62,730 bases of DNA, filler included, from Collodictyon triciliatum (GCA_043381765.1; 39 parts of 39 records of this genome joined end to end with filler, not necessarily neighbours in it), one strand, 5' to 3'; counted from the whole stretch's first letter, positions 21,015-54,805 are shown. Notes: generated by a model from the sequence alone, not told the origin. A program made the numbers and translations.

Positions 21015-22284
21015 ATCCTGGTAGACATGCAGTGCATGATGAGCTTCTTTCTGAGCTGTAGCTTCCATTAGGACAGGGGATGCACGATGATGAATCAAAT
21101 GAACCAGTTTTGTTGTTGAATGTTCCAGCTGGACATGATGTACATGATGCTGAAATTCCTCCAGGGCCAAAACTCCCTATTGGACAAGTAGTACACTGGT
21201 TAAGAGTGGAATCGTAGAAGGAGCCGGCATTACAAATTCCCCAGATCTTTATAGTAGCATCACAACTTCCAGATATAATTTTAGAACCATCGGGAGTAAC
21301 GACAACACCACCGACACCACCTTGATGACCTGTCAATGTACGGATCAATGATCCATCAGAGAGATTCCAAATTTTAACGGTGCTGTCGGCACTTCCTGAA
21401 ATTATTTTAGACCCATCAGGTGTGATAGCAACAGCATGAACAAAATGACTATGACCAGTTAATGTATTAATCAAAGCTCCGTTAGAAAGATTCCAGATTT
21501 TCAAGCTGGCGTCCCAGCTTCCAGAAATTATTTTTGACCCATCAGGTGTAATACTTACACTATTTACTGATGAAGTATGACCAGTTAACGTATTAATCAA
21601 AGCTCCGTCAGAAAGATTCCAGATTTTCAAGCTGGCGTCCCAGCTTCCAGAAACAATTGTTGAGCTATCTGAAGATAATGCAATCGAAAAAACAGTATGT
21701 GTATGACCAAGTAATGTACGAATTAATACTCCATCATAAAGATTCCATAATCTGATTGTTTTATCATCACTTCCGGATAGAAATTTAAAACCATCAGGAG
21801 TAAAAGAAACATATCGAACCAAACTAGTATGTCCTGTAAATGAGCGAATCAAATTTTCATCACTAGTGTCCCAAATATTAATTTTTCCATCGTAACCACC
21901 AGAAACAATTCTAGAATCATCAGGTGATATTGAGATACAAATAACTCCAGAGGGATTAGCTGACAATGTGCGAATCAAAGTTCCATCAAAGTTATTCCAT
22001 ATTCGAACTGTTCCATCATCGCTTCCAGATACAATCTTTGAACTATCTGAGGTGATGCCGACGCTCCAAATATTATTTTTATGACCGGTCAATGTGCGAA
22101 TCAGATGATTCTGCCCCTCAACAAGACATAATTGAAAATGGAAGAAAATCCCTACAAGAAAATAATCATCAATAAATTATCTGCAAATATTTAGCAAAAA
22201 AGGACACACAAAATTTAACTATTAGGTTGTGGTAGACGAATAAATACCCAAAGTCAAGGTAGTCGCGATGAACGAATTTTTCAT
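21015..22284 (-). CDS. Signal peptide + 7 WD40 repeats + Cys-rich GCC2/GCC3 (ephrin-receptor-like) repeats, 3' partial; intron 22247-22152
   Basis: Spliced N-terminus MKNSFIATTLTLGIFFHFQLCLVEG/QNHLIRTLTGH, then TGH...SGS.D..IKIW repeats, then CPIGSF, CPAGTF and CPNGSYS. Confidence 0.88.
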
Positions 22285-28886: not shown

Positions 28887-30497
28887 CAAGTTCCTTTTTT
28901 CTCGACTTTAGTTTTTATTCTTTGTTTTACCCTCGGAGTATTCTCTCGATCGACACGGTGATGATAATGAAANNNNNNNNNNNNNNNNNNNNNNNNNNNN
29001 NNNNNNNNNNNNNNNNTTAATTAATTAANNNNNNNNNNNNNNNNNNNNNNNNNNNNNNNNNNNNNNNNNNNNTTTTAAGATAGCCGCATAGTATCATGCT
29101 TGCTTTTTATGCACCATAGGTTTATAACCTTCCCCATCTTGACTGAAGCTCATCACAGTGTGCAAAAGGGTCGCTGTGCTCACGGTTGTTGTAGTGATAT
29201 ATCTCAAGCTACGTTAGACTGCTATTAGGACTCGAGTAAAATGTTTGTTTGTTTGTTTGTTTGTTTGTTTGTTTGTTTGTTTGTTTGTTTGTTTGTTTGT
29301 TTGTTTGTTTGTTTGTTTGTTTGTTTGTTTGTTTGTTTGTTTTGGAAAAAAAAAACAACTTGTATGTTAACTATTGTGCTTGAAGCAGTTGTGGAAAATG
29401 AAAGAGTTGTGAGAACATGGCAAGTCATACGAGCTATTTTAGAGCTGCGCAACCAAAAGAAAGAAAAGAAAAGAAAAGAAAAGAAAAGAAAAGAAAAGAA
29501 ACCTCCAGCATTCGAAGCGGAGTTCGGTTTGCTACTATGACGCAGTCGGAAAGCAGAAACTTTGTGAAGGCCTCTCTGGCTGGAATGACGGACGATGCCA
29601 TCCCGTTGCCGATATCTATGCTGTTGATGCTGAGTATTTACAGGTATGCCCCAAAAGGACTGGAGGGAAAAGGGGGAAAAAAATAGTGGAAAAGGAGCCC
29701 CAGCAAGAGAGTGAAGAAAACCAGATGCGTGATTGAGCGATGACTGATGTTTGGTGTATGAGGAAGGAGTTGGAAGATGCCTTTTTGACTCAGCGGAATT
29801 TATGATTATATGTGGAAATTATAATAATATTACTATTAATCATATAATATAATTTATTGGAAAATCATAATACTTACCAAAATATTATATAATTACATTC
29901 TGATACATAAAATGACACGGCGAACTTTCTGACGCCAGCTTCGACCATTTTCTCTCTTTTGCCAACCACCACATGGAAAACCCGGCGTCTGTGATCCCGT
30001 GCAGGAATCCGGCAAGTTGCACGCGAATCACCACTTCATTCTACTTATCCAAAAACCCGACTCCTTCTTTTTTCATTTGTATTTTTTCTTCTTCTTCATC
30101 TTTGTCCTCGTGCGAAAGGCAACCTTAAAATGGACTGTCTGTTTTGCGGACGGAAATGATCAGGGCTGCACGGTCGGTTTTCTGACAGGGCGAATCACAC
30201 ACGACGCTTTGTTGCTGCTTGTGCGCTGCCGCTCGTGTCCCTTTTTGCTCCTTTTTCTTTCTCCTTTTTCTTTCTCCTTCCCCCTGGCAAATATTCTGGT
30301 GACTATTGAACTGTGGTTGGCTTTTGGCGTGGAAGGGGAAACTTTTGATCTCTCGATAACTTTTCAGGAGCGAGAGTTGCAGCGATTCTCTTTCTTTCCT
30401 TTCTTTTCTTTCTTTCTTTCTCATTTTCTTTTTTTTTCTTTTCTTTTCTTTCTTTTTCTTTTCTTTTTCTTTTCTTTTCTTTCTTTTTCTTTTCTTT

Positions 30498-30581
<84 letters not shown>

Positions 30582-30719
30582 TNNNNNNNNNNNNNNNNNN
30601 NNNNNNNNNNNNNNNNNNNNNNNNNNTTAATTAATTAANNNNNNNNNNNNNNNNNNNNNNNNNNNNNNNNNNNNNNNNNNNNAAAAAGCAGTTATCTTCA
30701 TTAGCGAAAAAAAAAAAAA

Positions 30720-31646
30720 AAAAATAACATAGTTTAATGGATGCACGCAACTTTAATCTGGTTTACATGGTGGATGAGACAGGTAAGAAATTCCGTTATA
30801 TGGCGCACCAAAGACATGATAGCAAACCTCTTAAAAATCACAAAATACTCTTGCAAGAAAAAAAAGAAAAGTACGATGATTTCAGGGATATGCATGGCAA
30901 CAGGTTTACAAAGTGCTGTTTATTTTGGTGCCATGACTTTTGAAGAGTGTCAGCGGTTTGAGACACCAAGAGTATCTTTAATCGATTTAGAGACAGAACT
31001 GAGTAAACATAATTCATGCATGGTCGGTTATGAATAATTTCGAAAATATGTATCTATGAAATCAAGATACCAGATAGAATTATCCATATTTTATGAACAA
31101 GTAACTTTTCGAAAGATGATATGGAGACAGTATTGTTAATACAAAAAGTGAGCAGTTGTTTATGGACCGATTCGAAAAGGCATTTGGCAAGGATGTTGTA
31201 CTGGTGAATGGAGACTGGAACAGAAAATCTCAGATGAACCATTTTATGCCAAAAATCGGAAGAGGATTACGAAAAATACTATCCAAATGTTCTGAAGCAG
31301 TTAGTGTGGATGGATTTAGAACCTCCAAGATGTGGTGTATCTGCGGAAAAGAACTGGAATATATGAATCCGAAAGGAAATTCAAAAAAAAAGGTGTATAG
31401 TTGTCTCATATGTAAAGAATGCAATCGCTCGAAAGCAAAGAAAGTGTATTTTTGACAAGGGACTTTAACAGCGCTCAAAATATACTCATGAAAGTTTTTT
31501 TAACCTTTCATAATATGCATACACCTTCCTCTAAAAAAATAGGCTGTCGGGTCTTTCCTGGCGGCCTTCACCACTGCACGGTCATGGTGAAAAAAGTGGT
31601 GAGACCTTGGATGCTAGCACACCAGGTTTACTATTCGGAAGATTGA
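30720..31646 (+). pseudogene. Fanzor1 (eukaryotic TnpB-family RuvC RNA-guided nuclease), decayed C-terminal half
   Basis: Across frames, in the order expected for Fanzor1: MDARNFNLVYMVDETGKKFRYMAHQR (RuvC-I region), IDLETELSKHNS, FYEQVTFRKMIWRQY, FGKDVVLVNGDWNRKSQMNHFMP..GRGLRKIL, VDGFRTSK (RuvC-II, E to G), WCIC/CKEC zinc finger, TRDFNSAQNI (RuvC-III). Stops and frameshifts are present. Confidence 0.88.
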
Positions 31647-31711
31647 TATACTCCTTCTAGTGAATATTATAATTGATACAAGTTCAATTGAATTTAAAAA
31701 ATCAAGGCGTA
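31520..31711 (+). ncRNA. Candidate Fanzor omegaRNA scaffold / element right end
   Basis: Lies directly 3' of RuvC-III. Pairings: TCACCACT(31568-75)/AGTGGTGA(31595-602), GGTCT/AGACC and CCTGG/CCAGG. Boundaries are inferred. Confidence 0.45.
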
Positions 31712-32097
31712 CACCACATACGATACTGCCAATCCCGCCGCCCTGTCCTTATCTGCGCAGTCTTTTTTCTCTCTTCCTGGCGCTCTGCCCTTTACTTTCC
31801 ACGCAGTATACTTTCCTGGGCTTTGCAGGCCAGTCGTGTGAGAAACGAGGCTGATCTCCGTGCCACCGCCGCGTATCAGCACGAATCGCCATTCCCTTCA
31901 CAACCCGCACATGAATCTGCCCTTTGCGATCATTTAGAAACAGCAGCGCGACTCACAAAAAAAGAAACAAAAAACAAAAAAAAACAAAAAAAAACAGAAA
32001 AAAGAAACAAAGAAACAGAAAAAAAAACAGAAAAAGAAGAGTCCAAAACAAAACAGAAAAGTTAGTTTAAAACAAAACGGAAAAAACAGGCAACAAC

Positions 32098-32192
32098 ATG
32101 TTCCAGTCCTTCCCGAGCAGCCAACCGCACATCTCCGTGACCTGCGACCTATGCAACACACACCCGATCATCGGCGCGCGCTTTGTGTGCCT
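32098..32192 (+). CDS. ZZ-type zinc finger exon (partial)
   Basis: QPHISVTCDLCNTHPIIGARFVC matches the ZZ consensus H-x-x-V-x-CD-x-C-x3-PI-x-G-x-RF-x-C. Confidence 0.8.
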
Positions 32193-32430
32193 NNNNNNNN
32201 NNNNNNNNNNNNNNNNNNNNNNNNNNNNNNNNNNNNTTAATTAATTAANNNNNNNNNNNNNNNNNNNNNNNNNNNNNNNNNNNNNNNNNNNNAACAATAA
32301 CAATAATAACAATAATAACAATAATAACAATAATAACAATAATAACAATAATAACAATAATAACAATAATAACAATAATAACAATAATAATAATAATAAT
32401 AACAACAATAATAACAACAACAACAACAAC

Positions 32431-53097: not shown

Positions 53098-53484
53098 NNN
53101 NNNNNNNNNNNNNNNNNNNNNNNNNNNNNNNNNNNNNNNNNTTAATTAATTAANNNNNNNNNNNNNNNNNNNNNNNNNNNNNNNNNNNNNNNNNNNNAAC
53201 AGGAATAAAAAAACAGGAATAAAAAAACAGGAATAAAAAAACAGGAATAAAAAAACAGGAATAAAAAAACAGGAATAAAAAAACAGGAATAAAAAAACAG
53301 GAATAAAAAAACAGGAATAAAAAAACAGGAATAAAAATTACAGGAATAAAACGGACAAAACAACCGATAAAGAAGTGACTGAAGGCATACCACCATAAAA
53401 CTTGTTCTGAATATCCTGCGAATACGGGCCCACTGCAAGCCAAAGCACTTACCCCCGCCTCCTCCAAACATAACATAGACGGGG

Positions 53485-54297
53485 ATGAGCAGCGCAGAAT
53501 TGACAGGCAAGACCATCACAAGCGCCTCGCACCCGCTCCTTGTGCGCTTCATCCCACCCCTCCAAACAGAGCAATACACAACGCAGAGACCAATCCGTAT
53601 CGGCCTTTGCAGCTGCCCTGGAAAGCGCGTGGAAAAGAGCAGGCTGGGTGCCGCCGTTCGCCTTGACCGCAGCCTGCAAGCAGACATCAGCCGCCTCAGC
53701 GAGCTCTGCCCAGATGTGCCGCGCTACGTGACTATTGCTTGCCTCCTATCCGACTCGGAGCTGCGTTCATTGGGAGTTGACCCGAGTGCATATCGCAGGG
53801 AACTCGCAAAGCATGGCTTTGGCCTTATCGCATGGCCCCTGATTGAGGGAGGAGCACCGGCCCACGCATCGGAGATGGAGCGGTTTTTGCGGTTGTTGAT
53901 GCAACCATTCTTGTTGCCGCTTGGAGATGTCGAGTTGGGCACAGGCCGTGGGTCGCTGAGCGGACCGTCTTCTCTTCCGGTTGCGCTCATGGAGGCCCAG
54001 ACGGGCGGCGCAGAGTCTGGAGAGAATGCAGCAGACGCAGCCAGGCTTTATCTGATTGTCCATTGCCGCGGCGGGCTTGGGCGGGCTGGAATGGTTGCTG
54101 CGTGTCTCCTTCTGCGGTGCAATCCTGCAGTGTTGCCTGCTGATGCAATTCAGCACGTCCGCAAATACCGGCCCGGAGCTGTTGAGACGAAGCGGCAGGA
54201 GGATTTCATTCATGCCTTTGCGGCCTGGAGAACCACACAACAAGGCTGGGTCATCCGGGGAGCCAGGCCTATGTGCGAGTCTTTGCTGTCTAATTGA
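53485..54297 (+). CDS. CDKN3/KAP-like dual-specificity (PTP-superfamily) phosphatase, intronless, 270 aa
   Basis: Catalytic VHCRGGLGRAG (HCx5R), IGLCSCPGK, RSLQADI, ELRSLGV and AIQHVRKYRPGAVETKRQEDFI. Confidence 0.9.
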   Translation: MSSAELTGKTITSASHPLLVRFIPPLQTEQYTTQRPIRIGLCSCPGKRVEKSRLGAAVRLDRSLQADISRLSELCPDVPRYVTIACLLSDSELRSLGVDPSAYRRELAKHGFGLIAWPLIEGGAPAHASEMERFLRLLMQPFLLPLGDVELGTGRGSLSGPSSLPVALMEAQTGGAESGENAADAARLYLIVHCRGGLGRAGMVAACLLLRCNPAVLPADAIQHVRKYRPGAVETKRQEDFIHAFAAWRTTQQGWVIRGARPMCESLLSN

Positions 54298-54805
54298 CTC
54301 GTGCGACCTTGGCTTCGGGTGCAGTGCCAGCCACATCTGATGAAAGGTGGACCCCTCCGTGCAAGAAAAAAAAAAAACTAGAAAAAGGAGGGCATAATAA
54401 TAACGATGACAATATGTTTTTTCTTTTTTTATTTTTTTTTTAGATATGCAACTTGACACACCCGCAATAAAAGCAATCATGCGCTCGGGTGGAAATATGT
54501 TCCCTGAATGGCAGGTGGGGTATTTGGCCGTGAAGCAACCAAACGACCCTTTAAGCGCGGCTATATCATAGCAACCCTGCCAAACCCGATCGCGGGTGGA
54601 GCGGCCGAACGCGAATGCCATAGCGCACACTGAAAAAACAGAAAAACAAAAAGAAAAACAAAAAGAAAAACAAAAAGAAAAACAAAAAGAAAAACAAAAA
54701 GAAAANNNNNNNNNNNNNNNNNNNNNNNNNNNNNNNNNNNNNNNNNNNNTTAATTAATTAANNNNNNNNNNNNNNNNNNNNNNNNNNNNNNNNNNNNNNN
54801 NNNNN

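Follow-up and report, generated by a model that had tools for sequence, protein, structure and literature searches.

A probable Fanzor1 pseudogene remnant on a short unplaced contig of the Collodictyon triciliatum assembly

Introduction

Fanzor1 proteins are eukaryotic TnpB-type RNA-guided DNA endonucleases carried by DNA transposons. A run of short open reading frames (ORFs) in different frames on a small contig of the Collodictyon triciliatum assembly (GCA_043381765.1) raises the question of whether such a gene has left its remains there, and, if so, how far the copy has decayed, whether its guide RNA can still be traced and in whose genome it lies. The whole stretch of DNA analysed, hereafter the window, is 62,730 bases long and consists of 39 contigs of 1,504-1,520 bp, ordered by decreasing length and joined by linkers of the form N44-TTAATTAATTAA-N44. 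These contigs are unrelated and unplaced, so that the window is a pseudo-scaffold and not continuous genome. Because of the linkers, the contigs that flank the locus are not its genomic neighbours, its true context is 1.5 kb only, and any finding that spans a linker, or any argument from neighbouring genes across one, is void. Within these bounds, positions 30686-31572 are read here as the decayed 3' part of a Fanzor1 gene, ~290 codons out of ~650, on an unplaced contig of 1.5 kb, with a probability of about 0.9.

Homology and family assignment

An earlier sequence-only reading of this DNA had joined the short ORFs into one colinear protein and named it a Fanzor1 relic, and both parts of that proposal are borne out by comparison with full-length proteins. 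The window pieces, which occupy three frames, are colinear with full-length Fanzor1 proteins. P0161, a 648-residue metagenomic Fanzor1, follows positions 30686-31572 over its residues 350-640; a frameshift-aware alignment of the two holds 164 identical columns out of 280, and tblastn of P0161 against the contig returns four ordered segments over 30686-31538. The same search with P0005 (634 residues) yields four colinear segments in three frames, with a sum E of 1e-44. Judged from sequence comparison, this colinear tblastn similarity to full-length Fanzor1 is far above chance.

A piece of 111 residues translated from 31120-31455 was used as a query against 1.84 billion representative proteins and matched 289 of them at E<=1e-3 and 41 at E<=1e-10, many being proteins of 600-700 residues matched near residues 470-600, in the C-terminal quarter. 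It is 60% identical to P0161, the only full-length representative of its subfamily in a search of 5.8 billion protein clusters, and it aligns directly to the Fanzor1 structure of Parasitella parasitica (PpFz1, 9CF0; E 6.8e-5), the window's VDGFRTSK standing opposite IDEFRTSS. The full-length relatives extend this link to other solved structures. P0005 matches SpuFz1 of Spizellomyces punctatus (8GKH) at 9.2e-37 over residues 14-607, PpFz1 at 7.2e-34 and GtFz1 of Guillardia theta (9CER) at 7e-16; with P0161 as query, the same three score 2e-28 to 4e-23. The remaining PDB matches of P0161 at E<=10 are myoglobins at chance level (E>0.3), and no Fanzor2, TnpB or Cas12 structure is matched by it at that threshold.

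The published fingerprints of the family point the same way. According to Yoon et al. (2023; PMC10711439), Fanzors are marked by DPG at RuvC-I and by a catalytic Glu, termed "alternative", that precedes the first CxxC by six residues; Fanzor1 additionally has a TDG motif in the WED domain. Among 120 relatives of P0161, all carry DPG followed by ExxxxxxCxxC and 119 carry TDG. Only these DPG and ExxxxxxCxxC parts of the published DPG/Ealt TnpB regular expression were applied, since the clade has longer spacers and the full expression fits one relative of the 120. The three solved Fanzor1 proteins share with the remnant and its relatives the same order of domains, namely RuvC-I with DPG, GDW, the alternative Glu six residues before CxxC, the zinc finger and RuvC-III with RDxN. 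The relatives align with 8GKH nearly end to end at low identity, so that the likeness rests on E-values, and the window copy departs from the solved proteins by its truncation and its state as a pseudogene, with Gly for Glu, Trp for Cys and DAR for DPG. Fanzor2 and the TnpB of IS607 elements resemble the relatives in their RuvC fold, in the zinc finger and in two fingerprints, DPG and the alternative Glu. The relatives, in contrast, are longer, possess TDG and are partnered by a DDE transposase and not by an IS607 recombinase.

Several observations weigh against the Fanzor1 assignment. No Pfam or NCBIfam model matches any of the five frame pieces, for which the sole NCBIfam row is a dipeptidase at chance level (E 0.17); intact P0161 itself is without a Pfam family, and P0005 shows only a sub-threshold PF07282 in a Pfam scan. 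The assignment to Fanzor1 is thus founded on pairwise comparisons and PDB matches and not on a curated profile. The last frame piece finds only chance matches in the PDB, searches of the window with the five pieces or with nine full-length relatives detected no second copy, and the contig is tiny and lies among contigs of evidently mixed origin. PF26935 (DUF8286) is tagged on relatives by the data sources and is absent from the Pfam scan results.

The homology extends to the first bases of the contig, so that the gene is cut by the contig end and its 350 N-terminal codons would lie beyond the contig start. The sequence-only reading had placed the relic at 30720-31646; a remnant is indeed found there, but the homology starts at 30686, coding ends at ~31572, and 31646 is a stop in a shifted frame. 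A true 5' truncation at 30728, behind the A-run at 30707-30724, was also considered and is ruled out, as P0161 aligns through the A-run to the contig start. Among the proteins retrieved, P0004, a Fanzor1 fragment of 378 residues, is labelled "6-pyruvoyl-tetrahydropterin synthase" in one source, which looks like a mislabel.

Motifs and lesions of the copy

The coordinates of the remnant, its motifs and its lesions are collected in Table 1. The motifs listed in the sequence-only reading stand where it put them, including the Asp at 30740, the FYEQVTFRKMIWRQY stretch, GDW at 31210, VDGFRTSK, the zinc finger and RDFNSAQNI with its Asp at 31461; QMNHFMP and GLRK follow GDW. That reading had staked its identification on a Fanzor/TnpB match and on agreement of the motifs with the RuvC catalytic positions. 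The match is significant, and the three RuvC positions of the remnant align with D, E and D columns that are nearly invariant in the family. At the first of these, the Asp is followed in the relatives by Pro (14 of 14 non-gap cells) and Gly (16 of 17). The GDW columns of 149 relatives hold G in 140, D in 84 or N in 53, and W in 138. The window's GGA codon falls in a column with Glu in 139 of the 149, opposite the E of IDEFRTSS in 9CF0, and its Trp at the first zinc ligand in a column with Cys in 132 of the 149.

Table 1. Features of the Fanzor1 contig, in window coordinates
Feature	Position	Strand	Remarks
Unplaced contig holding the whole finding	30683..32192	.	1,510 bp; N44-TTAATTAATTAA-N44 linker on either side
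Fanzor1 pseudogene remnant (probable)	30686..31572	+	P0161 residues 350-640, end of WED/REC through RuvC to C-terminal tail
A18 run read as six Lys codons, then in-frame TAA (30725-30727)	30707..30727	+	Inside the alignment to P0161 350-362
RuvC-I position, D-A-R against D-P-G of relatives	30740..30748	+	Asp (GAT, 30740) kept; Pro and Gly lost
Frameshift 1, one extra base in window	30879..30881	+	P0161 alignment and sibling contigs
In-frame TAA, Lys in P0161	31035..31037	+	P0161 alignment
FYEQVTFRKMIWRQY motif stretch	31089-31133	+	Sequence
Frameshift 2, one extra base in window	31133..31135	+	P0161 alignment and sibling contigs
GDW motif, Fanzor counterpart of the canonical TnpB RuvC-II strand, intact	31210..31218	+	Conserved columns
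GGA (Gly) in VDGFRTSK at the Fanzor catalytic "alternative" Glu	31312..31314	+	Six residues before the first CxxC
Zinc-finger region	31333..31422	+	First ligand TGG (Trp) 31333-31335; Cys codons 31342, 31402/31411 and 31420 present
Frameshift 3, window one base short	31429..31431	+	P0161 alignment and sibling contigs
RuvC-III motif RDFNSAQNI	31458..31484	+	Asp 31461-31463 kept; D in 10 of 11 aligned
Frameshift 4, in or adjoining an A-run, just 5' of the C-terminal tail	31527..31543	+	P0161 alignment and sibling contigs
Candidate omega RNA (reRNA) scaffold remnant	31538..31635	+	Hairpins 31541-31567, 31568-31590, 31595-31635
Flank outside the element: 5' start of ZZ-type zinc-finger gene, cut by contig end	32098..32192	+	PF00569, E 0.003

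Relative to P0161, the reading frame is broken by four 1-bp frameshifts, near 30880, 31134, 31430 and 31540, and by two in-frame TAA codons. With these lesions, the loss of DPG at RuvC-I and the replacement of the catalytic Glu and the first Cys ligand, the remnant is dead and unable to make an active nuclease. The copy had been called dead in the sequence-only reading, from which two of its lesions, DPG->DAR and the first Cys->Trp, were absent and which was made unaware that the window strings together unrelated contigs. The TAA at 31035 and the Glu->Gly, Cys->Trp and DPG->DAR changes are substitutions and are therefore not homopolymer errors.

Sibling copies in public sequencing runs

Four public runs (X1 to X4) were aligned to the contig, and the resulting tables list contigs and not reads. 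None of the runs found to match the locus is listed as RNA. X3 derives from organism A, its kind (RNA or DNA) being guessed as RNA, and contributes 159 contigs aligned between ~30734 and 31650, of which 10 are at least 99% identical to the window, 24 are at 95-99%, 53 at 90-95% and 72 below 90%. They are read as many diverged copies of one Fanzor1 family. The variant table for X3 holds the 40 best-supported differences, and the depths quoted from it are summed depths, not copy numbers.

The sequence-only reading had remarked that GGA at 31312 is one change away from the catalytic GAA, and siblings supply exactly this change: 31313 G>A, giving GAA, is present in 15 X3 contigs (173.3 of 199.1 depth). 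The frameshifts can be followed in the same way. The extra base of frameshift 1 is absent at 30879/30880 in five X3 contigs (83.4 of 100.1 depth) and in one contig each of X2 and X4, and that of frameshift 2 is absent at 31133 in seven X3 contigs (140.2 of 171 depth) and one X2 contig. At frameshift 3, an extra A stands behind 31430 in five X3 contigs (87.1 of 115 depth) and one X4 contig, and at frameshift 4 a base is absent at 31533 in five X3 contigs (57.5 of 170.2 depth). At the first three frameshifts, the window's indel is missing from three to seven X3 contigs per listed row, with most of the depth. These sibling indels coincide with the first three frameshifts, which makes those lesions peculiar to the window copy or shared by a minority of copies only. 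Siblings with GAA and without the three frameshifts imply that the family exists and possibly has intact members, so that the suggestion of intact copies, made in the sequence-only reading, gains indirect support from X3.

Run X1 supplies two contigs of 151 nucleotides (nt) that reproduce the window without a difference, one over 31203-31353 and one over 31424-31574, thereby taking in frameshift 3 and both the Gly and the Trp codon; X1 is possibly the source sample itself and would then not be independent. Unique right-flank pieces recur with 0-2 differences in the freshwater and lake metagenome runs X2 and X4, from which it follows that the organism carrying the locus, or a near relative, lives in such water. 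One X4 contig matches 31588-31661 and is dissimilar beyond that, and one X2 contig matches 31534-31629, beyond which its letters are adapter-like.

Full-length relatives and their transposons

Full-length genes of this Fanzor1 clade were found at ten metagenome loci, and an alignment used as query against a viral collection gave 265 relatives among 296 matched stretches, 80 of which were kept for further comparison. The relatives are 600-660 residues long, and many of the full-length ones lie on contigs named GVMAG. One of the metagenome loci, L003, is on a contig of 254,533 bp that recurs as a GVMAG record in the viral collection, and another, L006, is likewise on what is named a giant-virus genome. 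The genes near relatives are of giant-virus type, among them a capping enzyme with an N7 methyltransferase, a MutS domain V protein, a ribonucleotide reductase small chain and an SNF2-type helicase, and the Atlas look-alikes of the relatives are Nucleocytoviricota clusters. The P0161 subfamily is 44-47% identical to the giant-virus copies, and a scan of viral contigs with P0161 alone gave no match.

Three loci preserve complete elements of ~3.3 kb (L003, 2637-5952; L005 and L006, 2631-5951), each with a Fanzor1 of 634 residues. Upstream on the opposite strand, L003 and L006 encode a transposase of 343-346 residues with DDE_3 and helix-turn-helix domains by Pfam; L005 has an ORF of 343 residues in a like upstream position, known by its placement only. 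The inverted repeats that bound L003, L005 and L006 match at 30, 28 and 29 of 30 bp, respectively, and the elements are flanked by 2-bp duplicates, mostly TA, that were read by eye. The right repeat of the complete elements forms the 3' part of the covarying structured RNA described below.

The pairing of a mariner-like transposase with Fanzor1 and TA duplicates was described in giant viruses in 2013 (Bao and Jurka, 2013; PMC3627910). The relatives resemble those Tc/mariner elements (PGv-1 and its kin) in the mariner-like DDE transposase joined to Fanzor1, in inverted repeats of ~30 bp, in 2-bp duplicates that are mostly TA and in their location on giant-virus contigs. The window subfamily stands apart from the same elements in its 44-47% identity to the viral copies and in a flank that looks cellular, and the transposase, repeats and ends of the window copy are not visible on its contig.

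A candidate omega RNA scaffold

Directly 3' of the RuvC-III region lies a block of predicted hairpins that on balance, if only just, we favour as a remnant of the Fanzor1 omega RNA (also called right-end element RNA, reRNA) scaffold. In relatives, conservation and structure extend over the final 100 nt of the ORF and 50 nt beyond it, the right inverted repeat included, and the alignment of six relative sequences predicts 41 pairs, nine with compensatory change. Three covariance models were built, R1 from these six sequences, R2 from 74 and R3 from 9. R1 places the element at the 3' end of the ORF in 74 of the 80 viral loci, where 89.6% of cells pair; shuffles reach 77.9%, and sliding the structure gives no more than 48%. 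As many as 30 of the 41 pairs show two-sided compensatory change in these loci, in an alignment fitted to R1, which favours structure.

Across the 62.7 kb, the top match of R1 is 31538-31630 (+), at 18.7 bits and E 0.0015, with a runner-up at 9.3 bits. The fold of the 105-nt block has a z-score of -3.0, with one of 200 shuffles as stable, and comprises three hairpins; a wider fold of 231 nt (31470-31700) is unremarkable (z -1.77). The GC content of the block is 0.505 as against 0.341 for the gene, and two common sibling differences, 31548 C>T and 31563 G>A, preserve pairs of hairpin 1.

A good deal tells against this identification. A sequence-only profile (nhmmer) finds no omega RNA match in the window, and the deeper R2 fails to find 31538-31635, its best window match being an unrelated AT-rich simple sequence at 5284-5412 (+), with 23.4 bits and E 0.01. 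R3 ranks the block first, yet at 12.0 bits and E 0.22, with the next match at 11.2 bits. The match of R1 itself is confined to the first half of its model, with 69 positions skipped, and in the relatives some of the modelled region is also protein-coding. AT-rich viral sequences predominate in the R2 alignment, in which 10 of the 41 pairs have gone to insertion columns and the first stem consists mainly of gaps. The R2 match at 5284-5412 is probably a false positive, with no Fanzor coding similarity on its contig, and it indicates that E-values of short-calibrated models can mislead here.

An Rfam scan of the contig gave only a chance sbrA row (E 0.57), and a likeness by eye of 31693-31715 to the right repeat of the relatives is unsupported by any RNA model.

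The reRNA of Fanzor1, as set out by Yoon et al. (2023; PMC10711439), has three stems and includes the right inverted repeat. The covarying element of the relatives agrees with this description, and three hairpins occupy the corresponding place in the window; the window block differs from it in that it fits the first half of the relatives' model and is significant with one of the three models.

Proposed ancestry of the element

The ancestral element may have worked as its nearest full-length relatives appear to do, as a Tc1/mariner-type transposon of ~3.3 kb that, by analogy with them, would have carried a DDE transposase, a Fanzor1 gene and terminal inverted repeats of 30 bp. Its Fanzor1 would have been a passenger nuclease of a cut-and-paste transposon, a role suggested by three reports on the family (PMC10432273; PMC10711439; PMC3627910). 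As in the rest of the family, an omega RNA would have been transcribed from the end of the Fanzor ORF across the right inverted repeat into the flank, and would have guided the nuclease to cleave matching DNA beside a target-adjacent motif (TAM). The block at 31538-31635 would then, somewhat more credibly than not, be what remains of that scaffold.

Alternative explanations

The shared architecture of RNA-guided nucleases leaves room for a different family name. The RuvC D-E-D and zinc-finger layout is common to Fanzor1, Fanzor2, TnpB and Cas12-like proteins, and Pfam traces in the relatives are limited to the PF07282 TNB domain, which is shared in the same way and scored below its cut-off, so that the remnant might be thought to derive from a Fanzor2, an IS607/IS605 TnpB or a Cas12-like gene. 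Against this stand the PDB matches of P0005 and P0161, which even at E<=10 name three Fanzor1 proteins only above chance level, the Fanzor1-typical TDG in 119 of 120 relatives with lengths of 600-660 residues, and the upstream ORFs scanned at L003 and L006, which encode DDE_3 transposases and not IS607 serine recombinases; this origin is scarcely credible. Slightly less remote, and still very improbable, is a gene that is alive in the organism and whose breaks are artefacts of sequencing or assembly on a short contig of poor quality. The contig is among the assembly's shortest leftovers, and frameshift 4 and the first stop are at A-runs, where length errors are common. However, the TAA at 31035 and the Glu->Gly, Cys->Trp and DPG->DAR changes are substitutions, frameshifts 2 and 3 are outside homopolymers, and the two X1 contigs repeat the Gly and Trp codons and frameshift 3 letter for letter, with the reservation that X1 could be the source sample.

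A dead Fanzor1 gene, which remains the preferred reading of the coding remnant, could still leave a locus that serves others. Ghost loci with an omega RNA and no protein have been reported in S. punctatus (Saito et al., 2023; PMC10432273), and they resemble the window in having no working protein and an RNA part that is possibly intact; the window differs in keeping a protein remnant and is known from its sequence alone. The hairpin block folds well, the two common sibling differences preserve pairs, and siblings without the window's lesions exist, all of which would fit transcription of an omega RNA used in trans by intact siblings. Since the nhmmer, R2 and R3 results leave the kinship of the block with the scaffold of the relatives in doubt, and neither the right end of the element nor any guide was located on the contig, a ghost guide-RNA locus is judged improbable. 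More weight attaches to the question of whose genome is represented. The contig may stem from another eukaryote sequenced alongside, or be a fragment of a giant virus, integrated or free, in which case "host lineage" is misattributed: GC contents of the window contigs run from 0.30 to 0.50, at least one contig (9708-11224) looks bacterial, the nearest full-length relatives are on giant-virus contigs, unique-flank pieces are found in freshwater and lake metagenome runs, and a Fanzor element in a Hydra contig was considered probably viral by Bao and Jurka (2013; PMC3627910). A viral source in particular is opposed by the GC-rich right flank (31731-32192) with its ZZ-finger gene start, unlike the AT-rich viral contigs, by the 44-47% identity of the P0161 subfamily to giant-virus copies and by the empty P0161 scan of viral contigs. 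A foreign contig is on the whole unlikely, though a serious contender; it is compatible with a Fanzor1 remnant and alters only whose genome holds the fossil. The sequence-only reading had concluded that the host lineage carries or carried a Fanzor family, and a sibling family does exist in X3; that host lineage is not attributable to the organism under whose name the assembly stands, given that the locus occupies an unplaced contig of 1.5 kb among mixed contigs.

Significance

As it stands, this decayed, contig-cut copy is an ordinary fossil of a well-known family, and the Fanzor1 family, its spread among protists, fungi, animals, algae and giant viruses, its association with mariner elements and its guide RNA are already in print. 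Fanzor1 proteins are eukaryotic RNA-guided nucleases under development as compact genome editors, and any new subfamily might yield enzymes and guide RNAs. The remnant itself, dead and truncated, is useless for that purpose. Its value lies in flagging the P0161-like subfamily and X3, a data set with less damaged copies, which is the best lead to emerge from the analysis; it also adds another case of intermingled viral and cellular Fanzor1 lineages and leaves the picture of the family's mechanism unchanged.

A broader and tentative idea, which we rate as rather unlikely, is that a multi-copy and partly intact P0161-like Fanzor1 subfamily of AT-rich composition resides in the nuclear genome of a freshwater eukaryote and reflects recent virus-host exchange with giant-virus mariner kin. 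Were it true, natural intact copies and a compact guide RNA of three hairpins would be recoverable, and the dead locus might even supply guide RNA in trans.

The contig and the remainder of the window

The 5' start of the ZZ-type zinc-finger gene lies ~450 bp past the hairpin block, has a GC content of 0.606 and is below the PF00569 cut-off because the gene is truncated by the contig end.

Elsewhere in the window, the contig at 9708-11224 is filled by one intron-free ORF of 505 codons with TPR repeats and a sub-threshold HisKA domain, which looks like a bacterial sensor kinase; on this ground the assembly probably includes non-host contigs. A phosphatase-like ORF at 53479-54297, on a different contig that need not share its origin with the Fanzor1 contig, has Atlas matches to a mix of bacterial and eukaryotic clusters. 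Seven WD40 repeats followed by a Cys-rich tail with CxxC-type repeats occupy 21015-22176 (-) on a contig of GC content 0.36, an AT-rich composition that differs from that of GC-rich contigs such as 53198-54705. Another AT-rich contig is filled at 6593-7646 by two ORFs on opposite strands, of 200 and 152 residues and without a Pfam family. Many contigs are closed by simple repeats, including (CTTT)n, (AATAAC)n, 9-mers and (GTTT)n, as at 30390-30582, 32293-32400, 6001-6370 and 29240-29330, and these terminal repeats probably explain why the assembly breaks there.

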